Below are positions 21,264-63,200 of a stretch of DNA of 63,200 nucleotides, in pieces. The translations under genes and the position numbers were made by a program. The DNA comes from Bacteroidales bacterium (GTDB taxonomy: Bacteria > Bacteroidota > Bacteroidia > Bacteroidales > VadinHA17), in the NCBI GenBank assembly GCA_007132995.1, contig SLNP01000009.1, positions 1-63,200 on the forward strand, given 5' to 3'. A model generated the notes under the pieces. The model was not told where the DNA came from, did no database searches, and saw nothing but the letters and a program-made list of their open reading frames with translations. Position 1 is the first letter of the stretch. Each line of letters opens with the position of its first letter.

Positions 21264-21462
21264 AACCGAGACTGGCGGAGCCAGACGAGCTCGCGACCGC
21301 AGGGAGCTACCGAACACTTCTCTCCGCTTTCCGCTCTACGCTCTACGCTGCGAACTGCGCCAGCAGCGAGCCCATGCCCCATGCCCCATGCCTGCGAGCG
21401 ACAGCGAGCAGAGGCGGCACCAGCCGCCTTTTTTTACCGAATACTGAACACTGAACACCGAA
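21264..21462. repeat. Modular intergenic repeat cluster (REP/BIME-like)
   Basis: Modules shared in reverse complement with 60795-61275 and 62677-62891, and in the same orientation with 45700-45782; tandem 7-mers ACGCTCT, ATGCCCC, ACTGAAC. Confidence 0.8.
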
Positions 21463-37743: not shown

Positions 37744-37917
37744 TCAGAAGGTTAAACCGACCCGGAGGCAGAGTCCCCTTTGTGGTTCAAAAGGTTAAAC
37801 CGACACGAGGGCAAGTTACCCATTGTGGTTCAAAAGGTTGTAAGCCGACACAGATGCAGACTCCCCTAACTGGCTCAAAAGGTTAAACCGGCAAAGAGGC
37901 AGGCTAATCTTAGTGGC
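37744..37917. repeat. Four degenerate 43-45 bp tandem units
   Basis: Units start TCA(G/A)AAGGTT at 37744, 37787, 37830 and 37875. Confidence 0.8.
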
Positions 37918-45699: not shown

Positions 45700-45782
45700 C
45701 TGCGAGCTGCGTCAGCAGCGAGCCCACGCCATATGCCTGCGAGCGTTAGCGAGCAGAGGCGGCGCCAGCCCGCTCCCATGCG
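45700..45782. repeat. Modular intergenic repeat (same family as 21264-21462)
   Basis: GCGAGCTGCGTCAGCAGCGAGC, TGCGAGCGTTAGCGAGCA and GAGGCGGCGCCAGCC modules. Confidence 0.8.
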
Positions 45783-49347: not shown

Positions 49348-49387
49348 GGTTATGCGGTTATGCGGTTATTCGGTTATGCGGTTATCT
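49348..49387. repeat. Tandem octamer GGTTATGC (5 copies, 2 degenerate)
   Basis: Read directly from the sequence. Confidence 0.8.
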
Positions 49388-49495
49388 GATTATTGTTGAG
49401 GAGTTGAGGAGTTTAGTGTGCTCGTTTCACTTTGTTTTAATACATCGAACAGACAAACCCAGTGCCATTGGAGCAGGATTAAGCTCTGCGAAACT
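49372..49495. repeat. 124-bp direct repeat, left copy
   Basis: Matches 52911-53034 with 6 mismatches by manual alignment. Confidence 0.9.
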
Positions 49496-56580: not shown

Positions 56581-57612
56581 TTGAATAAAGAGGCAAAAAT
56601 ATTCCGCGATCTTCCCCTCGATAGCAGGGTAAAGACTCTTGTTTGCTACTCTGCTGTCTATGGAGATATCACTTCAACAGACTCTATTGCACTTAGAATG
56701 AGAGACCACGCCCCAGAGGAGATAGAGCGGGTGCTTGAAACCCTGTTCGAAGAGGGGCGAATTGTTTTAAGGGGTGGATATGTATCCCTCCCCTGCCTTG
56801 AGGATATCATTCCCCGGAAAAACAGTAATCAAATAAAAAGCGAGGCTATAATCGGTAAAAGGAGCAGAGCTATTAAACTACTGGGGAAGCTCCCGGTTAT
56901 TAAACACATTGGTGTATCAGGGTCTCTGGCAGCAGGAAACGGCACTCCTGACAGAAATGACATAATAGATGTAGACCTGTTTGTTATTACAAAACGCCAC
57001 TGCTTCTGGCTCTTCTACATCCCTCTGGCCATATACAAGAACATATGGAAAAAGAAGAGAGGCTATAGCTTATGCATCAATTACATAATCGACGAAACCG
57101 ACCTCACCATATATAACGCCAACATATATACTGCGCATGAACTCTTCTTCCTCCTGCCTGTGAAGGGAAAAAAAGGATATAGCCGGTTTGTAGAGCATAA
57201 CCTGTGGATAAACAACTTTTTTCCCGGATTTGCAGAGACGACTTCTCCCTCCAGGCAGAGAGATGCATCTGTGGGAACCATCAATAAAATATTCTACCTT
57301 GCGTATAACCTTGTAAGAAGCGTAAAGCACTTCTCAATAAAGCCGCTGAGCGACTCATCGCTAAGGCTCGATCCGTACCGTAGCATAAATCCAAACAGGG
57401 CAACATCTCACTATGGAGGCTATCAGACATTGGTAATGAAAAAGTTTTGCAATATTGCTGAGAAACACTTCCCTGAAATATTGACTCAGGATATTATTAC
57501 TGCCATGTTTCCTGACGAGCTTAGCAGAGCCATTTTAAGCGGAGAAATTGATGCTCGAGAGCAATTGATGGAGGAAGGGTTTGGGGTACCGGATATAAAA
57601 AAGTATGGTTAA
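56581..57612 (+). CDS. Hypothetical protein with a Pol-beta-like nucleotidyltransferase motif
   Basis: GVSGSLA...DVDLFVIT, plus LCINY and YTAHE. Confidence 0.65.
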   Translation: MNKEAKIFRDLPLDSRVKTLVCYSAVYGDITSTDSIALRMRDHAPEEIERVLETLFEEGRIVLRGGYVSLPCLEDIIPRKNSNQIKSEAIIGKRSRAIKLLGKLPVIKHIGVSGSLAAGNGTPDRNDIIDVDLFVITKRHCFWLFYIPLAIYKNIWKKKRGYSLCINYIIDETDLTIYNANIYTAHELFFLLPVKGKKGYSRFVEHNLWINNFFPGFAETTSPSRQRDASVGTINKIFYLAYNLVRSVKHFSIKPLSDSSLRLDPYRSINPNRATSHYGGYQTLVMKKFCNIAEKHFPEILTQDIITAMFPDELSRAILSGEIDAREQLMEEGFGVPDIKKYG

Positions 57613-58414
57613 AGAGAAGTACTATACAAGCGTGGCGGAGTATTATGATGCAGATGCTGGCACCTTTGACGAAAGATACAGCGTAAACCCCGTACTGCAG
57701 AAAATACGCTCCGCTTTCCGGGAGGAGGTGAGCAGACACTCCTTTAAAACCATACTGGAAATTGGCTTTGGTACAGGCATAGATATCTGCTATTTTGCTT
57801 CAAAGTACCCAAATGCCGAGGTCTGTGGCATTGACATATCTGAAGAGATGCACCGTAATGCTGAGAAAAAGGTTCATGAAAAGAACCTTGATAATGTTAC
57901 TCTTAAAACCGGAACCCCTGAGCAGATACAAGAGCTCTTTCCAGGTAAGAGTTTCGATCATATATTTGTATTTTTCGGAGCCCTCAATACCGTTGCCGAC
58001 CTTAAAGAGACAGCTAAAATACTAAGAGAAAGCGTCTCGCCGGAAGGTGCAATGGTGATATCATTTGTCAATAAATGGTATCTGGCAGACATGCTGATTC
58101 ACATTGTAAAGTTGAGGCCCTCAATTGCATTCAGGCGCCTCCGTAACATCTGGGGTGGCTACTCAGACCTCAAGAGACTCGAGAGTCGCTGCTACTCAAC
58201 AAGCGATATAAGGCGAGCTTTCGGAGAAGATTTTGTCATTACCGGCAAAAGTGGTTATTCGATACTCTATCCTGCATGGTACAGGCTTAGCCTGCTATAC
58301 CGACTCGGGGAAAGAGTGAGCAACCTTCTCTGGAGGGCAGATATGCTTCTTAACAAAACACCCTTTCGCAGGTTTGGCGAGTACTCCCTATATACCTTCA
58401 GGCCCCGGCAGTGA
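57605..58414 (+). CDS. Class I SAM-dependent methyltransferase
   Basis: ILEIGFGTG, GIDIS, FDHIF, FGALN. Confidence 0.9.
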   Translation: MVKEKYYTSVAEYYDADAGTFDERYSVNPVLQKIRSAFREEVSRHSFKTILEIGFGTGIDICYFASKYPNAEVCGIDISEEMHRNAEKKVHEKNLDNVTLKTGTPEQIQELFPGKSFDHIFVFFGALNTVADLKETAKILRESVSPEGAMVISFVNKWYLADMLIHIVKLRPSIAFRRLRNIWGGYSDLKRLESRCYSTSDIRRAFGEDFVITGKSGYSILYPAWYRLSLLYRLGERVSNLLWRADMLLNKTPFRRFGEYSLYTFRPRQ

Positions 58415-59336
58415 TATCCAAGTTCTTCTCAACCATCGATCTTACAGTGGGATATTTGAAAGTGTAGCCCTCAATAAACCCCTTATTCACAGTAGAAGCG
58501 TTAAGAGAGAAGGTAAATGCCTTCCAAACAGTATCGCCATACCTCTTTCGGACCTCACTACGGTTAAAAACTCTCAACGGTAGTCCGCTGATATCGGATA
58601 GCAGTGACGCGAACTCCCTCTGCTCAATAGCGGCACCCGGCACAAACAGGTTGTAGTTTTGTCCCGGCACACCACTTGAAGCCGCAAGCTCAATAAGTCC
58701 CGCACAATCTGTCACATCTATAAAACTCATTATGTTTTTACCATCCCCATATTGCGGCACAAAACCAAAGCGGCTCATTGTATCGAGATAATAGCCTTTA
58801 AACCATGATGCCGTTCCCATAACCCAGGGCGGTCTAAGCATCGAGACAGGCACACCCCCTTTCGCAGACTCTTTGATAAAAGGCCTTTCAGCAAGTATAT
58901 ACTGACTTGCAAAAGCGGTGGGATTAAGGGGCTGCTCTTCTGTAACAGAACCCCTTCCGCAATCGCCATACATTAATGTGCCGCTAACATACAACAGGCG
59001 TGGAGGCGCCTCTCTTCCCTTCATCCACGATAAGAGACGCCTGTTTGCCCTTGCACCCTTCTCAGCCGCCAGCAACCGCCCAAGAGCGCCGCTCCCCCTG
59101 TTTCTTGCCATATGCACAATCAGATCAGGGTTGAAGCTTTCTGCCGCCCTCAGGTCAAACGAACCCAGGCTGCCCCGAATAGTTTCAAAATGCTCCAAAC
59201 TAACGGCTGCATCTGTTCTGTTAACAAGAACCAACACATTGTAGCGGCTATCAATACTTCTAAGCGTTGCCAGTAGTTCCGACCCTATAAAACCGGTTCC
59301 TCCCAGAACAAGAATATTTTGTCTCCTCCCCATCAA
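58398..59336 (-). CDS. NAD-dependent epimerase/dehydratase family protein
   Basis: LGGTGFIG, extended SDR features (LRPPWVMG, FIDVTD). Confidence 0.85.
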   Translation of the reverse strand: MMGRRQNILVLGGTGFIGSELLATLRSIDSRYNVLVLVNRTDAAVSLEHFETIRGSLGSFDLRAAESFNPDLIVHMARNRGSGALGRLLAAEKGARANRRLLSWMKGREAPPRLLYVSGTLMYGDCGRGSVTEEQPLNPTAFASQYILAERPFIKESAKGGVPVSMLRPPWVMGTASWFKGYYLDTMSRFGFVPQYGDGKNIMSFIDVTDCAGLIELAASSGVPGQNYNLFVPGAAIEQREFASLLSDISGLPLRVFNRSEVRKRYGDTVWKAFTFSLNASTVNKGFIEGYTFKYPTVRSMVEKNLDITAGA

Positions 59337-59459
59337 CAGCTTTTCTATCTAAGATCGCAATTTACAACTTATTGTCCGGCAACCGGCAATTCCAGTGTTA
59401 TAGCACAATATCAAGCCCTTTAAACCAGTAAATACCATCACTTTTACTAATATTGCACT

Positions 59460-60803
59460 ATGACAGCCGCTCAGCTAAGCACCATAATCATAGCTTCGGT
59501 AACGGGACTCTACTCTCTGTTACTGCTTGGGGCATCAATGATATCACTGGCAGAGAGGCAGAAACGGGCGGCAGCCATACTGCTCGCCATAGCCCTGCTG
59601 ATGGCACTGGCCGGCTGGGCCGCAGCCACCTTCAGCTATCCGGGCAAGAACTTCCTGGCTCTGCTGCTGCTGGCCGACATAGCCCTGCTTCTCTGGCTGC
59701 TGTTAAAGCCTCCCGCCGGCGAAAAGCGCGACAGCGGTTACCGCTTCATGCCGGCCAGAGTGGTCGACGAGAGAGACACCATCTTCGCCCGCATGAAACT
59801 GAAACCCGGAACCACAGAGTATAATAACTACTACACCGCGCGCCCGGAGAGCAGATCTCCCGACGATGAGGCGAGGAGTCTGCCCGGGCTCCTCTCTGCC
59901 GGAGGAACAAAATACCACCCGCTCAACTTCGCAGCCGCCGAAGCCAATTTCACCCTTATCGAATATATGCACAAGGCAATCGGTCAGCCGGTAAGTGCTA
60001 CAAAAACAGAGATAGCGGCTCCGGAGCTGACACGATATATAAAAAAGTGGTTATCGACACTCGGCGCACACTCCTCCGGTATTACAGAGCTGAAAGATTA
60101 TCATCTCTACACCATCAGGGGCAGAGGCAGTGAGAGAGGCAGGCCGGTAGATAAACGCCATCGGTACGCTATAGCTTTCACTGTAAAGATGGATATGCGC
60201 AATATAGCCACGGCACCCGCCTCACCGGTAATATTTGAGTCATCACAAAGGTATCTCGACAGTGCCAATATGGCGCTGCAGGTGGCGGGTCTGCTCAAGG
60301 GACTCGGCTACGATGCCCGTGCCCATATTGACGGCGACTACGAGCTTATCTGCCCGCTGGTGGCACATGACGCGGGGCTGGGAGAGATTGGGCGGATGGG
60401 GCTGCTTATGACCCCCGATGCCGGTCCGGCCGTGCGTATCGCAGTGGTTACCACCGAAGCGCCCCTGCTGCCTGATATGCCGAAACCCGACCCCACACTT
60501 ATTACCTTCTGCCGCATATGTCAGAAATGCGCCGATTGCTGTCCGGGACGATCAATACCCTATGGTGAGATGGAGCGCGCAGGAGGTGTGCTGCGATGGA
60601 AGATCGACAGCGAGAGCTGCTACCGCTACTGGTGTATTACGGGCACCGACTGCGGAAGGTGCATCGCCGTCTGTCCCTACAGTCACCCCGACAATATCAT
60701 GCACCGCATGGTGCGGAGAGTTATCAGGCGGTCGCACCTGGCAGCCGAAGTGGCCTATATGGCCGACGACATCCTCTACGGCCGTAAACCGAAGGCTCGC
60801 TAA
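59460..60803 (+). CDS. Reductive-dehalogenase-like 2x[4Fe-4S] protein with N-terminal TM helices
   Basis: Three hydrophobic segments, DERDTIFAR, LGYDARAH, AGLGEIGRMG, GPAVR, CRICQKCADCCP, C...CGRCIAVCP. Confidence 0.8.
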   Translation: MTAAQLSTIIIASVTGLYSLLLLGASMISLAERQKRAAAILLAIALLMALAGWAAATFSYPGKNFLALLLLADIALLLWLLLKPPAGEKRDSGYRFMPARVVDERDTIFARMKLKPGTTEYNNYYTARPESRSPDDEARSLPGLLSAGGTKYHPLNFAAAEANFTLIEYMHKAIGQPVSATKTEIAAPELTRYIKKWLSTLGAHSSGITELKDYHLYTIRGRGSERGRPVDKRHRYAIAFTVKMDMRNIATAPASPVIFESSQRYLDSANMALQVAGLLKGLGYDARAHIDGDYELICPLVAHDAGLGEIGRMGLLMTPDAGPAVRIAVVTTEAPLLPDMPKPDPTLITFCRICQKCADCCPGRSIPYGEMERAGGVLRWKIDSESCYRYWCITGTDCGRCIAVCPYSHPDNIMHRMVRRVIRRSHLAAEVAYMADDILYGRKPKAR

Positions 60804-60832
60804 CGCTCGCTGGCATAGGGCATGGGCTCGCT

Positions 60833-61171
60833 GCTCATAACACGGGTTGTGTTGCGAGCATGTAAGAAAGAGCTATCTAATTAGCAATACTGCGTAATCA
60901 GCGAGTCGCTTGAATTTGGCCTTAAGCGGGTTCGGGGTAAGAGTCTGATCGGAGGGCAGCAATATCAGTATGCTGCAAATATGATATACGGTTAGCGTTA
61001 CTGTTTGAGGGCTGCGCAGCAGACCGAGTTGTAACGCGGTGTGCTGCCCGCAGTGAAGACTCCCCGAACCCGCTTTAGCCTTGACTTTGTTGCTTCCGTC
61101 CGGTCGCGAGCTCGCCCGGCTTCGCCGACCTCGGTTGGTCACCTTTTTTTGGTCCAAGCAAAAAAAGGTGA
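60833..61171. other. Structured non-coding element, copy A
   Basis: Nested inverted repeats; homologous to 62931-63200 with compensatory changes. Confidence 0.75.
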
Positions 61172-61463
61172 TAGAGAAATGTTGGTCAAGCAAAAGGTGA
61201 AAAGCCAAACCTTTGGTCAAGGTCAAAAGTTGAGAGACAGCGACACCCGATGGCTCGCTGCTGGCGCAGCTCGCAGCGGAGAGCAAAGAGGTGGGTGCTT
61301 GGGAGTATCGATTCATGTTTAAGAGAGGGGGCGAATGCCGGCTGGAATTGCTTGCCGGTTAAAGCTGCTCACCACCGCAAATAAACCTATCGACCCTGCA
61401 ATCTGAAACTTTACTTTTCAATTTGCATTGTTATTTGTACATTTGTAAAAAAGTATCCCGTTT

Positions 61464-62660
61464 ATGATCAGGAGAGAGAGGTTTCAATCGCTAGTTAGAG
61501 CGTTAGAATCAATGCCTGTTGTTGCGTTGATTGGGTCAAGGCAGGTAGGGAAAACAACACTTGCCCTTGAGGTTGCCAGGGAAATTGATAAACCTGTAAC
61601 CCATATCGATTTGGAATCGGATGCTGATTTTAACAAACTGACAGATGCAGAAGCTTACCTTGGAAGGTTCGACGGGCAACTGCTTATCATTGATGAGGTG
61701 CAGCGTAAGCCAGACCTGTTCAGGTTACTTCGTGTAATAGTGGATGAAAGGAGGAGGAAGGGTGAACGCTCATGCCATTTTTTACTGTTGGGGTCAGCTT
61801 CCAGAGACTTACTGCAAAGATCATCGGAGTCGTTAGCGGGCAGGATCAGGTATATGGAGCTAACCCCATTTACGGTAACCGAGTTGAAAGAGAATGAGCA
61901 GGCCGGGTTTGATTTGGAGCTTTTGTGGCTAAGAGGAGGTTTCCCCGACAGCTACCTTGCGGAGAGTGATCAGGCAAGCTGGGATTGGAGAAGGGATTTT
62001 TTTACCACCTATGTGGAGCGGGATATTCCGTCGATGGGTGTTGGGGTATCTGTACCTCAGCTTAAGCGCTTCTGGAAAATGCTGGCACATTACCATGGTA
62101 ATCAAATCAACTTAAGCGAATTTGGCAGAAGCCTTGAGTCCAGTCATACCACAATAAGGAATTATCTGGACACACTAACTGATTTCTATATGGTCAGGCA
62201 GTTATCTCCCTGGTCAGGAAACATAAAAAAACGGCTGGTAAAAACGCCTAAGATATATATTCGCGACTCGGGTATATTACATAGTTTACTGCTGTTACCA
62301 AAATTTGATGCTTTGCTTTCCCACCCCATAATAGGAGCAAGTTGGGAAGGATTTGTGGTTGAAAACATTATTAACCAATTGGATGAGAGGTGTGAGTGCT
62401 GTTACTACAGGACAGCAACAGGCGCTGAAATAGATTTAGTGATTCATACCCCGGATAATGAGATTTGGGCTGTAGAAATAAAGCGGAACCTTGCACCAAA
62501 ACTAACCAGGGGGTTCCACGAGGCTTGCAAAGATATCAAAGCAACGCATAAATGGTTGGTCAGTGCAAAAACCGATCGTTATCCATTAACCGGGGGGGTG
62601 GAGGTAATAGGGCTGTCAGAGTTTTTAAAATTGTTAAAGGACAAATTTTCAGGCTTGTAA
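61464..62660 (+). CDS. AAA_14 ATPase with DUF4143 C-terminal domain
   Basis: GSRQVGKTT, IIDEVQ, LLGSAS, ESLAGR, RGGFP, KTPKIYIRDSG, EIDLV...EIK. Confidence 0.92.
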   Translation: MIRRERFQSLVRALESMPVVALIGSRQVGKTTLALEVAREIDKPVTHIDLESDADFNKLTDAEAYLGRFDGQLLIIDEVQRKPDLFRLLRVIVDERRRKGERSCHFLLLGSASRDLLQRSSESLAGRIRYMELTPFTVTELKENEQAGFDLELLWLRGGFPDSYLAESDQASWDWRRDFFTTYVERDIPSMGVGVSVPQLKRFWKMLAHYHGNQINLSEFGRSLESSHTTIRNYLDTLTDFYMVRQLSPWSGNIKKRLVKTPKIYIRDSGILHSLLLLPKFDALLSHPIIGASWEGFVVENIINQLDERCECCYYRTATGAEIDLVIHTPDNEIWAVEIKRNLAPKLTRGFHEACKDIKATHKWLVSAKTDRYPLTGGVEVIGLSEFLKLLKDKFSGL

Positions 62661-62676
62661 TCTTGATTTTAGTGGC

Positions 62677-62891
62677 GGGCATGGGCTCGCTGCTGAAGCA
62701 GCTCGCAGCGTAAAGAAGTGCTCGCTAACGCTCGCAGGCAAAGGGCATAGGGCATGGGGCATGGGGCATGGGGCATGGGGAGCGGGCTGGCGCCCGATGG
62801 CTCACTTTGCTCGCCATTGTAATCAGTGATCAGTAATCAGTAATCAGTAAAAAAAGGCGGCTGGTGCCGCCTCTGCTCACTGACGCTCGCA
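62677..62891. repeat. Modular intergenic repeat cluster
   Basis: GCTCGC...GCTCGC modules, (G/A)GGGCAT tandem, GTAATCA tandem, GGCGGCTGGTGCCGCC. Confidence 0.8.
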
Positions 62892-62930
62892 CTAAAAAAA
62901 AGCTTTAAGATGTTTCGGGAAATAATGTAC

Positions 62931-63200
62931 GCTCACAACCAGCACGGGTTGTGTTGTGAGCATGTAAGACAGACCTGTCTCTTTAGCAGTTCTGTGTAAT
63001 CAGCGAGTCGATTAAAAGGCCGGCGTAGGCGAAGTCCGGGAAAAAGAGATGGCTATGAGTAAAGCAAATTACGACACTAACCCATTAGACAGATGAGAGC
63101 GTTGATGTTTGAAGTTCTGCGCAGCAGAACAAGTTCAACGCGGGTGCTTTACGAAGAGCCATATCCCCGGACGGAGGCTAGCCGGGGGCTTTGTTGCTCC
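62931..63200. other. Structured non-coding element, copy B (cut by the window end)
   Basis: Same block order and helices as 60833-61096. Confidence 0.75.

Follow-up and report, generated by a model that had tools for sequence, protein, structure and literature searches.

A strongly structured hairpin repeat family in environmental Bacteroidales

Two hairpin repeats near a contig end

The window analysed here (63,200 nt) is the entire contig SLNP01000009.1 (C68) of G000, a Bacteroidales bin of 134 contigs and 2.32 Mb at 94.5% completeness, and its 3′ end carries two copies, A and B, of a long palindromic repeat. Copy A is placed between the genes for a 4Fe-4S dicluster protein (59460–60803) and an AAA_14/DUF4143 ATPase (61464–62660), and copy B follows the ATPase gene and is truncated by the contig end at 63200. 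A preliminary description of this DNA had reported two divergent copies of one element. Both are real, but genome-wide blast and a covariance model place them among ~30 copies rather than in a pair; likewise, the element lies where it had been drawn, but the unit is longer, with modules also at 60795–60841, 61173–61285 and 62672–62943. The repeat family is genuine and has a pronounced secondary structure, and it had not been catalogued before. Metagenome runs containing window DNA derive from soda-lake and alkaline-sediment samples, and the relatives matched by an element-derived sequence pattern carry the titles of uncultured Bacteroidales metagenome-assembled genomes (MAGs).

Below, the hairpin is denoted H and the accompanying modules L, U, T1 and T2. 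The features of the two window copies are:

60795–60841 (+): upstream repeat module with GCTCGC boxes and GGGCATGGG, overlapping the stop of the open reading frame (ORF) at 59460–60803; its motif is also found at 62716–62742 and 5′ of other copies
60842–60908 (+): module U of copy A, a ~67-nt conserved block with TAATCAGCGAGTCG as its 3′ end (module blast)
60909–61085 (+): hairpin H of type A, with nested helices and a GCA apex (blast, folding, alignment)
60995–61037 (+): conserved core of H, i.e. GCGTTAC/GTAACGC around the TGTTTGA / GAGTT loop, plus the apical helix (covariance model R1, 66.7 bits)
61086–61136 (+): module T1, the GC-rich palindromic repeat GGTCGCGAGCTCGCCCGGCTTCGCCGACC, preceded by CTTTGTTGCT (module blast)
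61137–61172 (+): module T2, the A/T palindrome hairpin CACCTTTTTTTGG-TCCAAG-CAAAAAAAGGTG (folding, module blast)
61173–61285 (+): further short A/T-stem hairpins, then a GCTCGC-type module (sequence; blast of query positions 348–431)
62672–62884 (+): upstream repeat tract of copy B, with GCTCGC modules, heptamer arrays and a hairpin (sequence, repeat and terminator scans)
62743–62780: heptamer array (GGGCATG)5.4 within this tract
62819–62850: heptamer array (GTAATCA)4.6 within this tract
62853–62874: terminator-like hairpin with a T tail within this tract, reading on the minus strand
62885–62916 (+): lead module L, GCACTAAAAAAAAGCTTTAAGATGTTTCGGG (module blast; 91–100% identity among copies)
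62944–63010 (+): module U of copy B (module blast)
63014–63188 (+): hairpin H of type B, with its core at 63094–63146; the contig ends 12 nt 3′ of the hairpin

A conserved and covarying fold

The nested helices initially proposed are exact reverse complements in both copy A (60924–60937/61062–61075, 60954–60961/61042–61049 and 60995–61001/61031–61037) and copy B (63034–63040/63166–63172, 63059–63066/63145–63152 and 63099–63105/63135–63141). The GAGTCT/AGACTC and ATGGCT/AGCCAT helices are present as well, AGACTC sharing one C with the next helix, and TAATCAGCGAGTCG, TGTTTGA, CTGCGCAGCAG and CTTTGTTGCT, the blocks common to both copies, are found a single time in each and in identical order. Mean column identity between the two copies is 73%. 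Folded as RNA, element A reached –142.9 kcal/mol (z = –5.0), a value equalled by none of 100 shuffles; with DNA parameters, the hairpins alone scored z = –6.75 and –6.01 (0 of 200 shuffles equal).

A full-length alignment of nine hairpins picked from the ~30 copies (four of type A, two of type B, two of type C and one from a congener, representing four independent types only) had 92.1% of the 304 cells of its 34 base pairs paired, as opposed to 78.8% in shuffles, none of 500 of which reached the observed value, and 32–42% with slid partners. Two-sided change was seen in 15 of these pairs. For the core, 31 sequences were known at that stage, and a covariance model derived from 18 of them was used to search 45 sources, yielding 63 matches, 53 of them distinct. 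In the resulting alignment, which is fitted to the model and hence biased towards it, 93.0% of cells were paired, compared with 70.4% in shuffles (0 of 500 reaching the observed value). Helix 1 (7 bp) was 99.5% paired, and two of its positions switched (AU:34/GC:18 and UA:31/AU:22) without a single unpaired cell. Two-sided change affected 12 of the 14 core pairs, including all seven of the apical helix. The claim of a conserved, covarying fold was thus borne out by both the shuffles and the compensatory pairs in multi-copy alignments.

The internal loop TGTYTGA / GAGTT is nearly invariant, while the helices on either side of it covary. The K-turn, an RNA motif, consists of a three-nucleotide bulge followed by tandem sheared G·A pairs; from a reading of the sequence alone, the loop of H can be drawn with G·A/A·G beside helix 2 and a 2-nt bulge. 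In clear cases across genomes, H measures 95–170 nt, and its feet read GGCC, TTTTGGGG or TTACGGG. Triloops make up 21 of 43 apical loops; nine of these are C(GNA)G, in keeping with an early remark on GNA triloops, as compared to one GNRA and one UNCG loop. G–U pairs account for only 11 cells of the core helices. No consensus fold was obtained for module U from 40 aligned true copies.

Two MAGs of another family carry H 74 nt upstream of the same RuvA-like ORF (its identity being read from the N-terminus). The outer stems of this pair of hairpins differ at seven base pairs, all of them compensated, which could reflect selection on that copy, its replacement by another copy, or template switching.

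Copy number, module order and insertion

Used as a query, copy A returned 96 blast matches within its own genome, and the covariance model matched 30 times. With eight modules as queries, blast recovered 69 clusters, which were spread over about 60 of the 134 contigs and lay mostly at contig ends; the repeat therefore breaks the assembly, and it is the main cause of the fragmentation of this bin into 134 contigs.

Module order is invariant: L, sometimes U0, one to three U, H, T1 and then at least one A/T-stem hairpin T2. In this genome, H is a ~165-nt hairpin of three sequence types, of which A and B are found in the window and C on other contigs. Each additional U has the first 22 nt of the type A hairpin before it. 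Nested insertion was considered as the source of these tandem U blocks and rejected, the rest of the type A hairpin not being found downstream. One copy (G000:C13:13750–14147) comprises L, U, T1 and T2 without H, with the junction GAGTCGCTTAAGCCTTGAC; it is either a site from which the palindrome was cleanly lost or one that was not filled.

Comparison with congeners locates the composite unit in one intergenic region on contig C63, where divergent genes lie 1081 nt apart, as against 133, 123 and 199 nt in G004, G001 and G005, respectively, and where the flanking ORFs abut in G003. The additional DNA comprises the composite unit and its flanking arrays; at this one comparable locus, the unit is thus extra DNA relative to four congeners, and the element behaves as inserted, multi-copy DNA, as had been supposed when it was likened to a mobile element. 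The empty sites are too diverged to align for exact ends or duplications, and at a second locus (C91) the congeners share no synteny.

Composite units are bordered by heptamer arrays and GCTCGC-rich modules. The arrays, (GGGCATG)n, (GTAATCA)n and (CGGAGAG)n, lie in the window at 62743–62780, 62819–62850 and 21371–21392, and others were seen upstream of elements on C46, C63, C2 and C91; intergenic heptamer arrays are known from cyanobacteria and Beggiatoaceae. An isolated stretch of 36 nt at 45714–45749 on the minus strand, with no hairpin near it, matches the GCTCGC/GGGCATG module that lies upstream in copy A (92%). T1 (GGTCGCGAGCTCGCCCGGCTTCGCCGACC) is a separate short palindromic repeat that also occurs solo, often in tandem at 42–59-nt spacing, and is present in all five congeners and one further genus (G001–G006, loci L032–L047). 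At least three copies (those on C46 and C113 and copy B of C68) include in their 5′ regions the minus-strand terminator-like hairpin (62853–62874), which is opposite in direction to the element. With this hairpin on one side and H with its T tract on the other, the unit would halt transcription arriving from either direction.

Distribution across Bacteroidales

According to the covariance model, H is present in 44 of 151 genomes of the same family, representing 10 of 20 genera. Copy numbers usually range from one to eight, with bursts in G000 (30), G011 (33) and G416 (22). An order-wide sample of about one genome per family added seven positives among 150 other genomes, including the closed genome G053 (23 weaker hits) and G064 (seven hits, up to 59.5 bits); for four of the seven, the best E-values were 8e-5 to 6e-4, G053 alone having been inspected. 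A strict pattern detected 12 loci in eight Bacteroidales MAGs among 185,579 species and none in viral contigs, and blast against plasmids and phages returned nothing.

The 5′ modules are unrelated between genera. What recurs in the three genera read is H followed by TTGAnnTTTTTTGG and then by an A/T palindrome, the outer pairs of which vary from genus to genus. Outside G000, 37 of 55 copies have at least eight T in the 15 nt after H, as compared to two of 55 with at least eight A before it. In G000 the sequence after H reads TTGACTTTGTTGCT or TTGACTTTTTTTGC, and the T-tail script, which placed the hairpin end elsewhere, scored 0 of 8 there. H is older than the composite unit.

In G416, 15 hairpin cores lie on one strand within 40 kb among housekeeping-type genes (G416:C1:1330840–1369901; L135–L137), and the same stretch holds two IS110-family elements of 1.56 kb that are 96% identical. 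G011 carries a variant with the helix GCGATCC/GGATCGC and a C-GAA-G apex, and four of its loci (L153, L155, L156 and L159) are short tandem runs of a ~380–440-nt unit composed of H, the T tract, the A/T palindrome and a GC hairpin.

Interpretation as a probable polar interspersed repeat

Taken as a whole, and leaving aside whether it acts as DNA or RNA, the family is probably a polar, non-autonomous interspersed repeat and not a single gene. The best account of H is a folded single strand that is read by a protein yet to be found. The written strand would have to fold, and the internal loop may serve as the contact point of the protein. As to the working form, we lean slightly towards single-stranded or extruded DNA, hold RNA to be nearly as plausible, and regard both or neither as rather unlikely. 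In a DNA form, the single-stranded or extruded hairpin would be used in the element's own spread, by an enzyme yet to be found; in an RNA form, a sense-transcribed copy would act as a long-stem terminator-like or end-protecting hairpin.

Several observations weigh against this interpretation. Perfect compensation within a palindrome can also arise by replication template switching without selection. Among the young copies of G000, G–T mismatches are not commoner than A–C mismatches (four vs. six), and there is therefore no sign of strand-specific purging. Element ends and target duplications are not definable, and H is least conserved at its termini, contrary to what a classical inverted-repeat transposon would show. 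Nor was a mobilising enzyme detected: Y1_Tnp, the TnpB domain, IS110 and RVT_1 had no match in G000, a bin that is 94.5% complete and of a kind from which repeated genes are often absent; Y2_Tnp had none in five high-copy genomes, in a search whose control matched in no genome; and the integron integrase TIGR02249 reached at best 133 bits against a cut-off of 265 in five genomes, its only matches in G000 being two XerC/D-like ones. No strand rule emerged either, as 32 fragments of G000 lie on the G-rich and 37 on the C-rich strand, and the 44 copies pooled from 19 other genomes (seven windows without a core by pattern having been dropped) split 24 vs. 20. For a cis-acting RNA in particular, the orientation of the upstream gene is unfavorable: among 36 elements of G000, this gene was co-oriented in 15 and opposed in 19 cases (two elements reach the contig end), and same and opposite orientations numbered 11 vs. 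10 in G416 and 9 vs. 12 in G053.

Another reading treats H as neutral palindromic DNA without function for host or element, whose perfection would be maintained by template-switch mutation and by gene conversion among the copies. The similar numbers of the two mismatch types, the random orientation relative to genes and skew, and the clean loss of H between U and T1 in the C13 copy would all agree with it. We nonetheless consider it very improbable. A ~30-nt core has been kept over ten genera and several families while the flanking helices changed, template switching would tend to erase an asymmetric loop, and the fixed succession of H, T tract and A/T palindrome is found again in genera with otherwise unrelated modules.

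Strand, orientation and transcription

The written strand folded better than its complement in 65 of 71 windows, ~4 of which are chance matches. G–U pairs numbered 222 vs. 124 in mirrored folds, and the written strand contains 2990 G vs. 2171 C; in strictly defined helices, the G–U count relative to the mirrored one was 11 vs. 3 in the core and 4 vs. 6 in the G000 copies. Because the strand is G-rich, and mirrored folding and strict helices narrow the contrast, a choice of strand from fold energies is weak.

A replication-strand rule was also considered. In the closed 4.87-Mb genome G053, the sense strand coincides with the G-rich strand of the nearest sampled window in 20 of 23 model hits, and a pattern census of windows placed 14 of 20 on the G-rich strand; gene orientation tracks the skew closely in this genome, with two local clusters as exceptions. 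In G416, where the skew profile is patchy, 22 of 22 copies occupy the locally C-rich strand. The rule was dropped, being strong but of opposite sign in two closed genomes and vanishing in the 19 others.

In a hand count over other genomes, the upstream gene had the same orientation as the element in ~19 cases and the opposite one in 11. The Bacteroidetes-type promoter motif TAnnTTTG does not occur in the window element on either strand, and for the same sample, one metatranscriptome run contained 0.13 of the words sampled from 57600–63200, a share that is no evidence of transcription. Altogether, the triloops, C(GNA)G in particular, and the scarcity of G–U pairs point to DNA, and the T-rich tail and the conservation near the apex point to RNA; the near-random orientation of upstream genes and the lack of a TAnnTTTG motif count for DNA.

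These data also bear on a further reading, in which the many copies would be genes of one family, encoding a structured non-coding RNA that is transcribed on its own, the unit being a small transcription unit and the loop a K-turn-like protein-binding motif with tandem G·A pairs. Covariation around an invariant, asymmetric loop near the apex, the place that RNA-binding proteins usually read, would be expected of such an RNA; the T-rich stretch following H has the look of an intrinsic terminator, conservation of the lead module L amounts to 91–100%, and the better folding of the written strand with its surplus of G–U pairs would also agree. However, this advantage is partly compositional, few G–U pairs are found in strictly defined helices, and no more than 2 of 43 apical loops are of the GNRA or UNCG kind. 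The element itself lacks the promoter motif that the neighboring ATPase gene possesses, module U has no consensus fold, and the 5′ modules are unrelated between genera. Overall, an RNA gene family appears improbable.

Known families, enzymes and gene partners

As the preliminary description had anticipated, no named family accommodates the repeat. Rfam 15 returned no match at the gathering score across the whole window, and no row covered the core at E-values up to 10 (60700–63200) or up to 5 (eight loci from other genomes). The single overlapping row was the S10-Clostridia leader at 63094–63180 (E 5.2; 15.7 bits vs. a cut-off of 35.1). We likewise agree that the window holds no cognate enzyme. 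Across genomes, no neighboring gene recurred at the 41 loci compared (38 with a core by pattern), save in one genome seen twice.

The suggestion that H might be the substrate of an HUH/Y1 enzyme has fared less well. On this account, H would be of the REP/REPIN or IS200/IS605 type and would be cut by a Y1 HUH transposase (RAYT or TnpA) on the lagging-strand template. It would explain a multi-copy folded-strand element with lineage-specific bursts and frequent C(GNA)G triloops, as well as the preference for the G-rich strand in G053; many genomes of the family have Y1_Tnp (102 of 151), and one study describes a Bacteroidetes-specific RAYT subclass (2.6) with 'atypical secondary structures' alongside (PMC6006769). 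Yet Y1_Tnp is barely enriched with the hairpin, being found in 33 of 44 genomes with H and 69 of 107 without, and is unmatched in G000 (30 copies), G011 (33 copies) and four of five H-carrying congeners. For eight genomes containing both, coordinates compared by hand gave a smallest distance of 1.3 kb, in G020 and only on one side, and the remaining pairs are at least 8 kb apart or on different contigs. As H moreover measures 95–170 nt without a GT[AG]G foot, and a general strand bias is absent, we judge this account to be quite improbable.

Several other candidates were tried, and most of them were set aside. REP/REPIN–RAYT systems do not fit, with Y1_Tnp unmatched in G000 and G011 and not adjacent to H in the eight genomes compared by hand; H also differs from REPs in size and foot (20–40 nt with GT[AG]G or CGTC), its feet having been read without a systematic motif scan. 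A non-autonomous IS200/IS605 derivative (PATE) is disfavored by the absence of Y1_Tnp and TnpB matches in G000 and of a general strand bias. For the bridge or seek RNA of IS110/IS1111, IS110 is unmatched in G000, and the 1.56 kb common to the two G416 IS110 copies near hairpins excludes H. Retron non-coding RNAs were dropped with RVT_1 unmatched in G000 and no recurrent neighbor, and integron attC sites with no IntI above the cut-off in five genomes. A classical miniature inverted-repeat transposable element would have terminal inverted repeats that are conserved, together with a target-site duplication; in H, variation between types and genera is greatest at the termini. As for terminators, a T tail was found in 37 of 55 copies, and a simple scan, restricted to stems of up to 20 pairs and loops of 3–8 nt, did not flag H.

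Gene setting in the window

Two composite repeats in direct orientation flank the ATPase gene (61464–62660), to which the TAnnTTTG motif at 61438 belongs. A link between this ATPase and the repeat was dropped: although both window copies flank the gene, the genome has just one copy of it. The 4Fe-4S gene (59460–60803) has its stop codon within a repeat module at 60795–60810 (GCTCGCTAACGCTCGC). The module recurs at 62716–62735, and the repeat therefore seems to supply the last codons of this gene. Two further arrays in the window, a 43-nt tandem repeat at 37744–37890 (3.4 copies, 75% matches) and an 8/16/24-nt array at 49348–49394, are unrelated to the hairpin repeat.

Comparison with known repeats and implications

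In its behavior, the family would come nearest to the class of ERIC, BOX and REP. ERIC (also IRU) of enterobacteria is an imperfect palindrome of ~100–170 nt that lies in intergenic regions in either orientation, varies from few to hundreds of copies between related species and is conserved across genera; to our knowledge, no dedicated enzyme has been described for it. Palindrome size, intergenic sites in both orientations and variable copy number are shared with ERIC. In contrast, the sub-apical internal loop of H is conserved and its helices covary, H has a fixed partner in the T tract plus A/T palindrome, and it is restricted to environmental Bacteroidales; a sequence relation to ERIC was not looked for. 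BOX of Streptococcus pneumoniae is a modular repeat with a fixed module order and one module that varies in number, reminiscent of the fixed order observed here with one to three U. However, the modules are unrelated, and H is far older and more widespread than the other modules.

REP/BIME and REPIN elements are 20–40 nt in length, have a GT[AG]G or CGTC foot and are accompanied by a RAYT gene flanked by repeats, as far as the portions available to us describe them (PMC6006769, PMC3733652, PMC3333891). Many intergenic palindromes clustered with other short palindromes, and a folded single strand as the REP substrate, constitute the likeness; size (95–170 nt), conservation near the apex and the lack of a link to RAYT set H apart. 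Integron attC sites, too, are hairpins that vary in sequence but keep their structure and that function as a folded single strand, and the 15 copies of G416 in one orientation within 40 kb are reminiscent of them. Unlike in integrons, no integrase exceeded the cut-off, conservation is near the apex and not at the foot, and the intervening genes in G416 include primase-like and isoleucyl-tRNA-synthetase-like ORFs (read from their N-termini). Finally, H has in common with intrinsic terminators a hairpin that contains GC and, on one strand, a U-rich tract behind it, and the 3′-end stem-loops of Bacteroidota reportedly differ little from typical terminators (PMC13613805). H departs from these in a stem ~10 times the usual length, a conserved internal loop, and an upstream gene that is co-oriented only about half the time.

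Relative to ERIC, BOX and REP, the conservation pattern is inverted, with a variable foot and an invariant sub-apical loop; H also has a fixed downstream partner. It is possible, though unlikely, that H is the folded-strand site of an undescribed Bacteroidales system, i.e. either a new form of single-stranded DNA mobilisation without HUH, integron or IS110 enzymes, or a new RNA class with a dedicated loop-binding protein. If true, the A/T palindrome usually found after H would make up the other half of this site.

For proteobacteria and firmicutes, dispersed palindromic repeats are well documented. A literature search of limited coverage found none described for environmental Bacteroidales, and the accessible parts of 2026 preprints on the discovery of non-coding elements with language models make no mention of this hairpin repeat. 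With its ~30-nt core across genera, two-sided covariation and bursts that arose independently in four or more genomes, including two closed ones, the family offers a clean case. The closed burst genomes make the partner protein or enzyme searchable, and a covariance model for the repeat would aid the annotation and scaffolding of related genomes.

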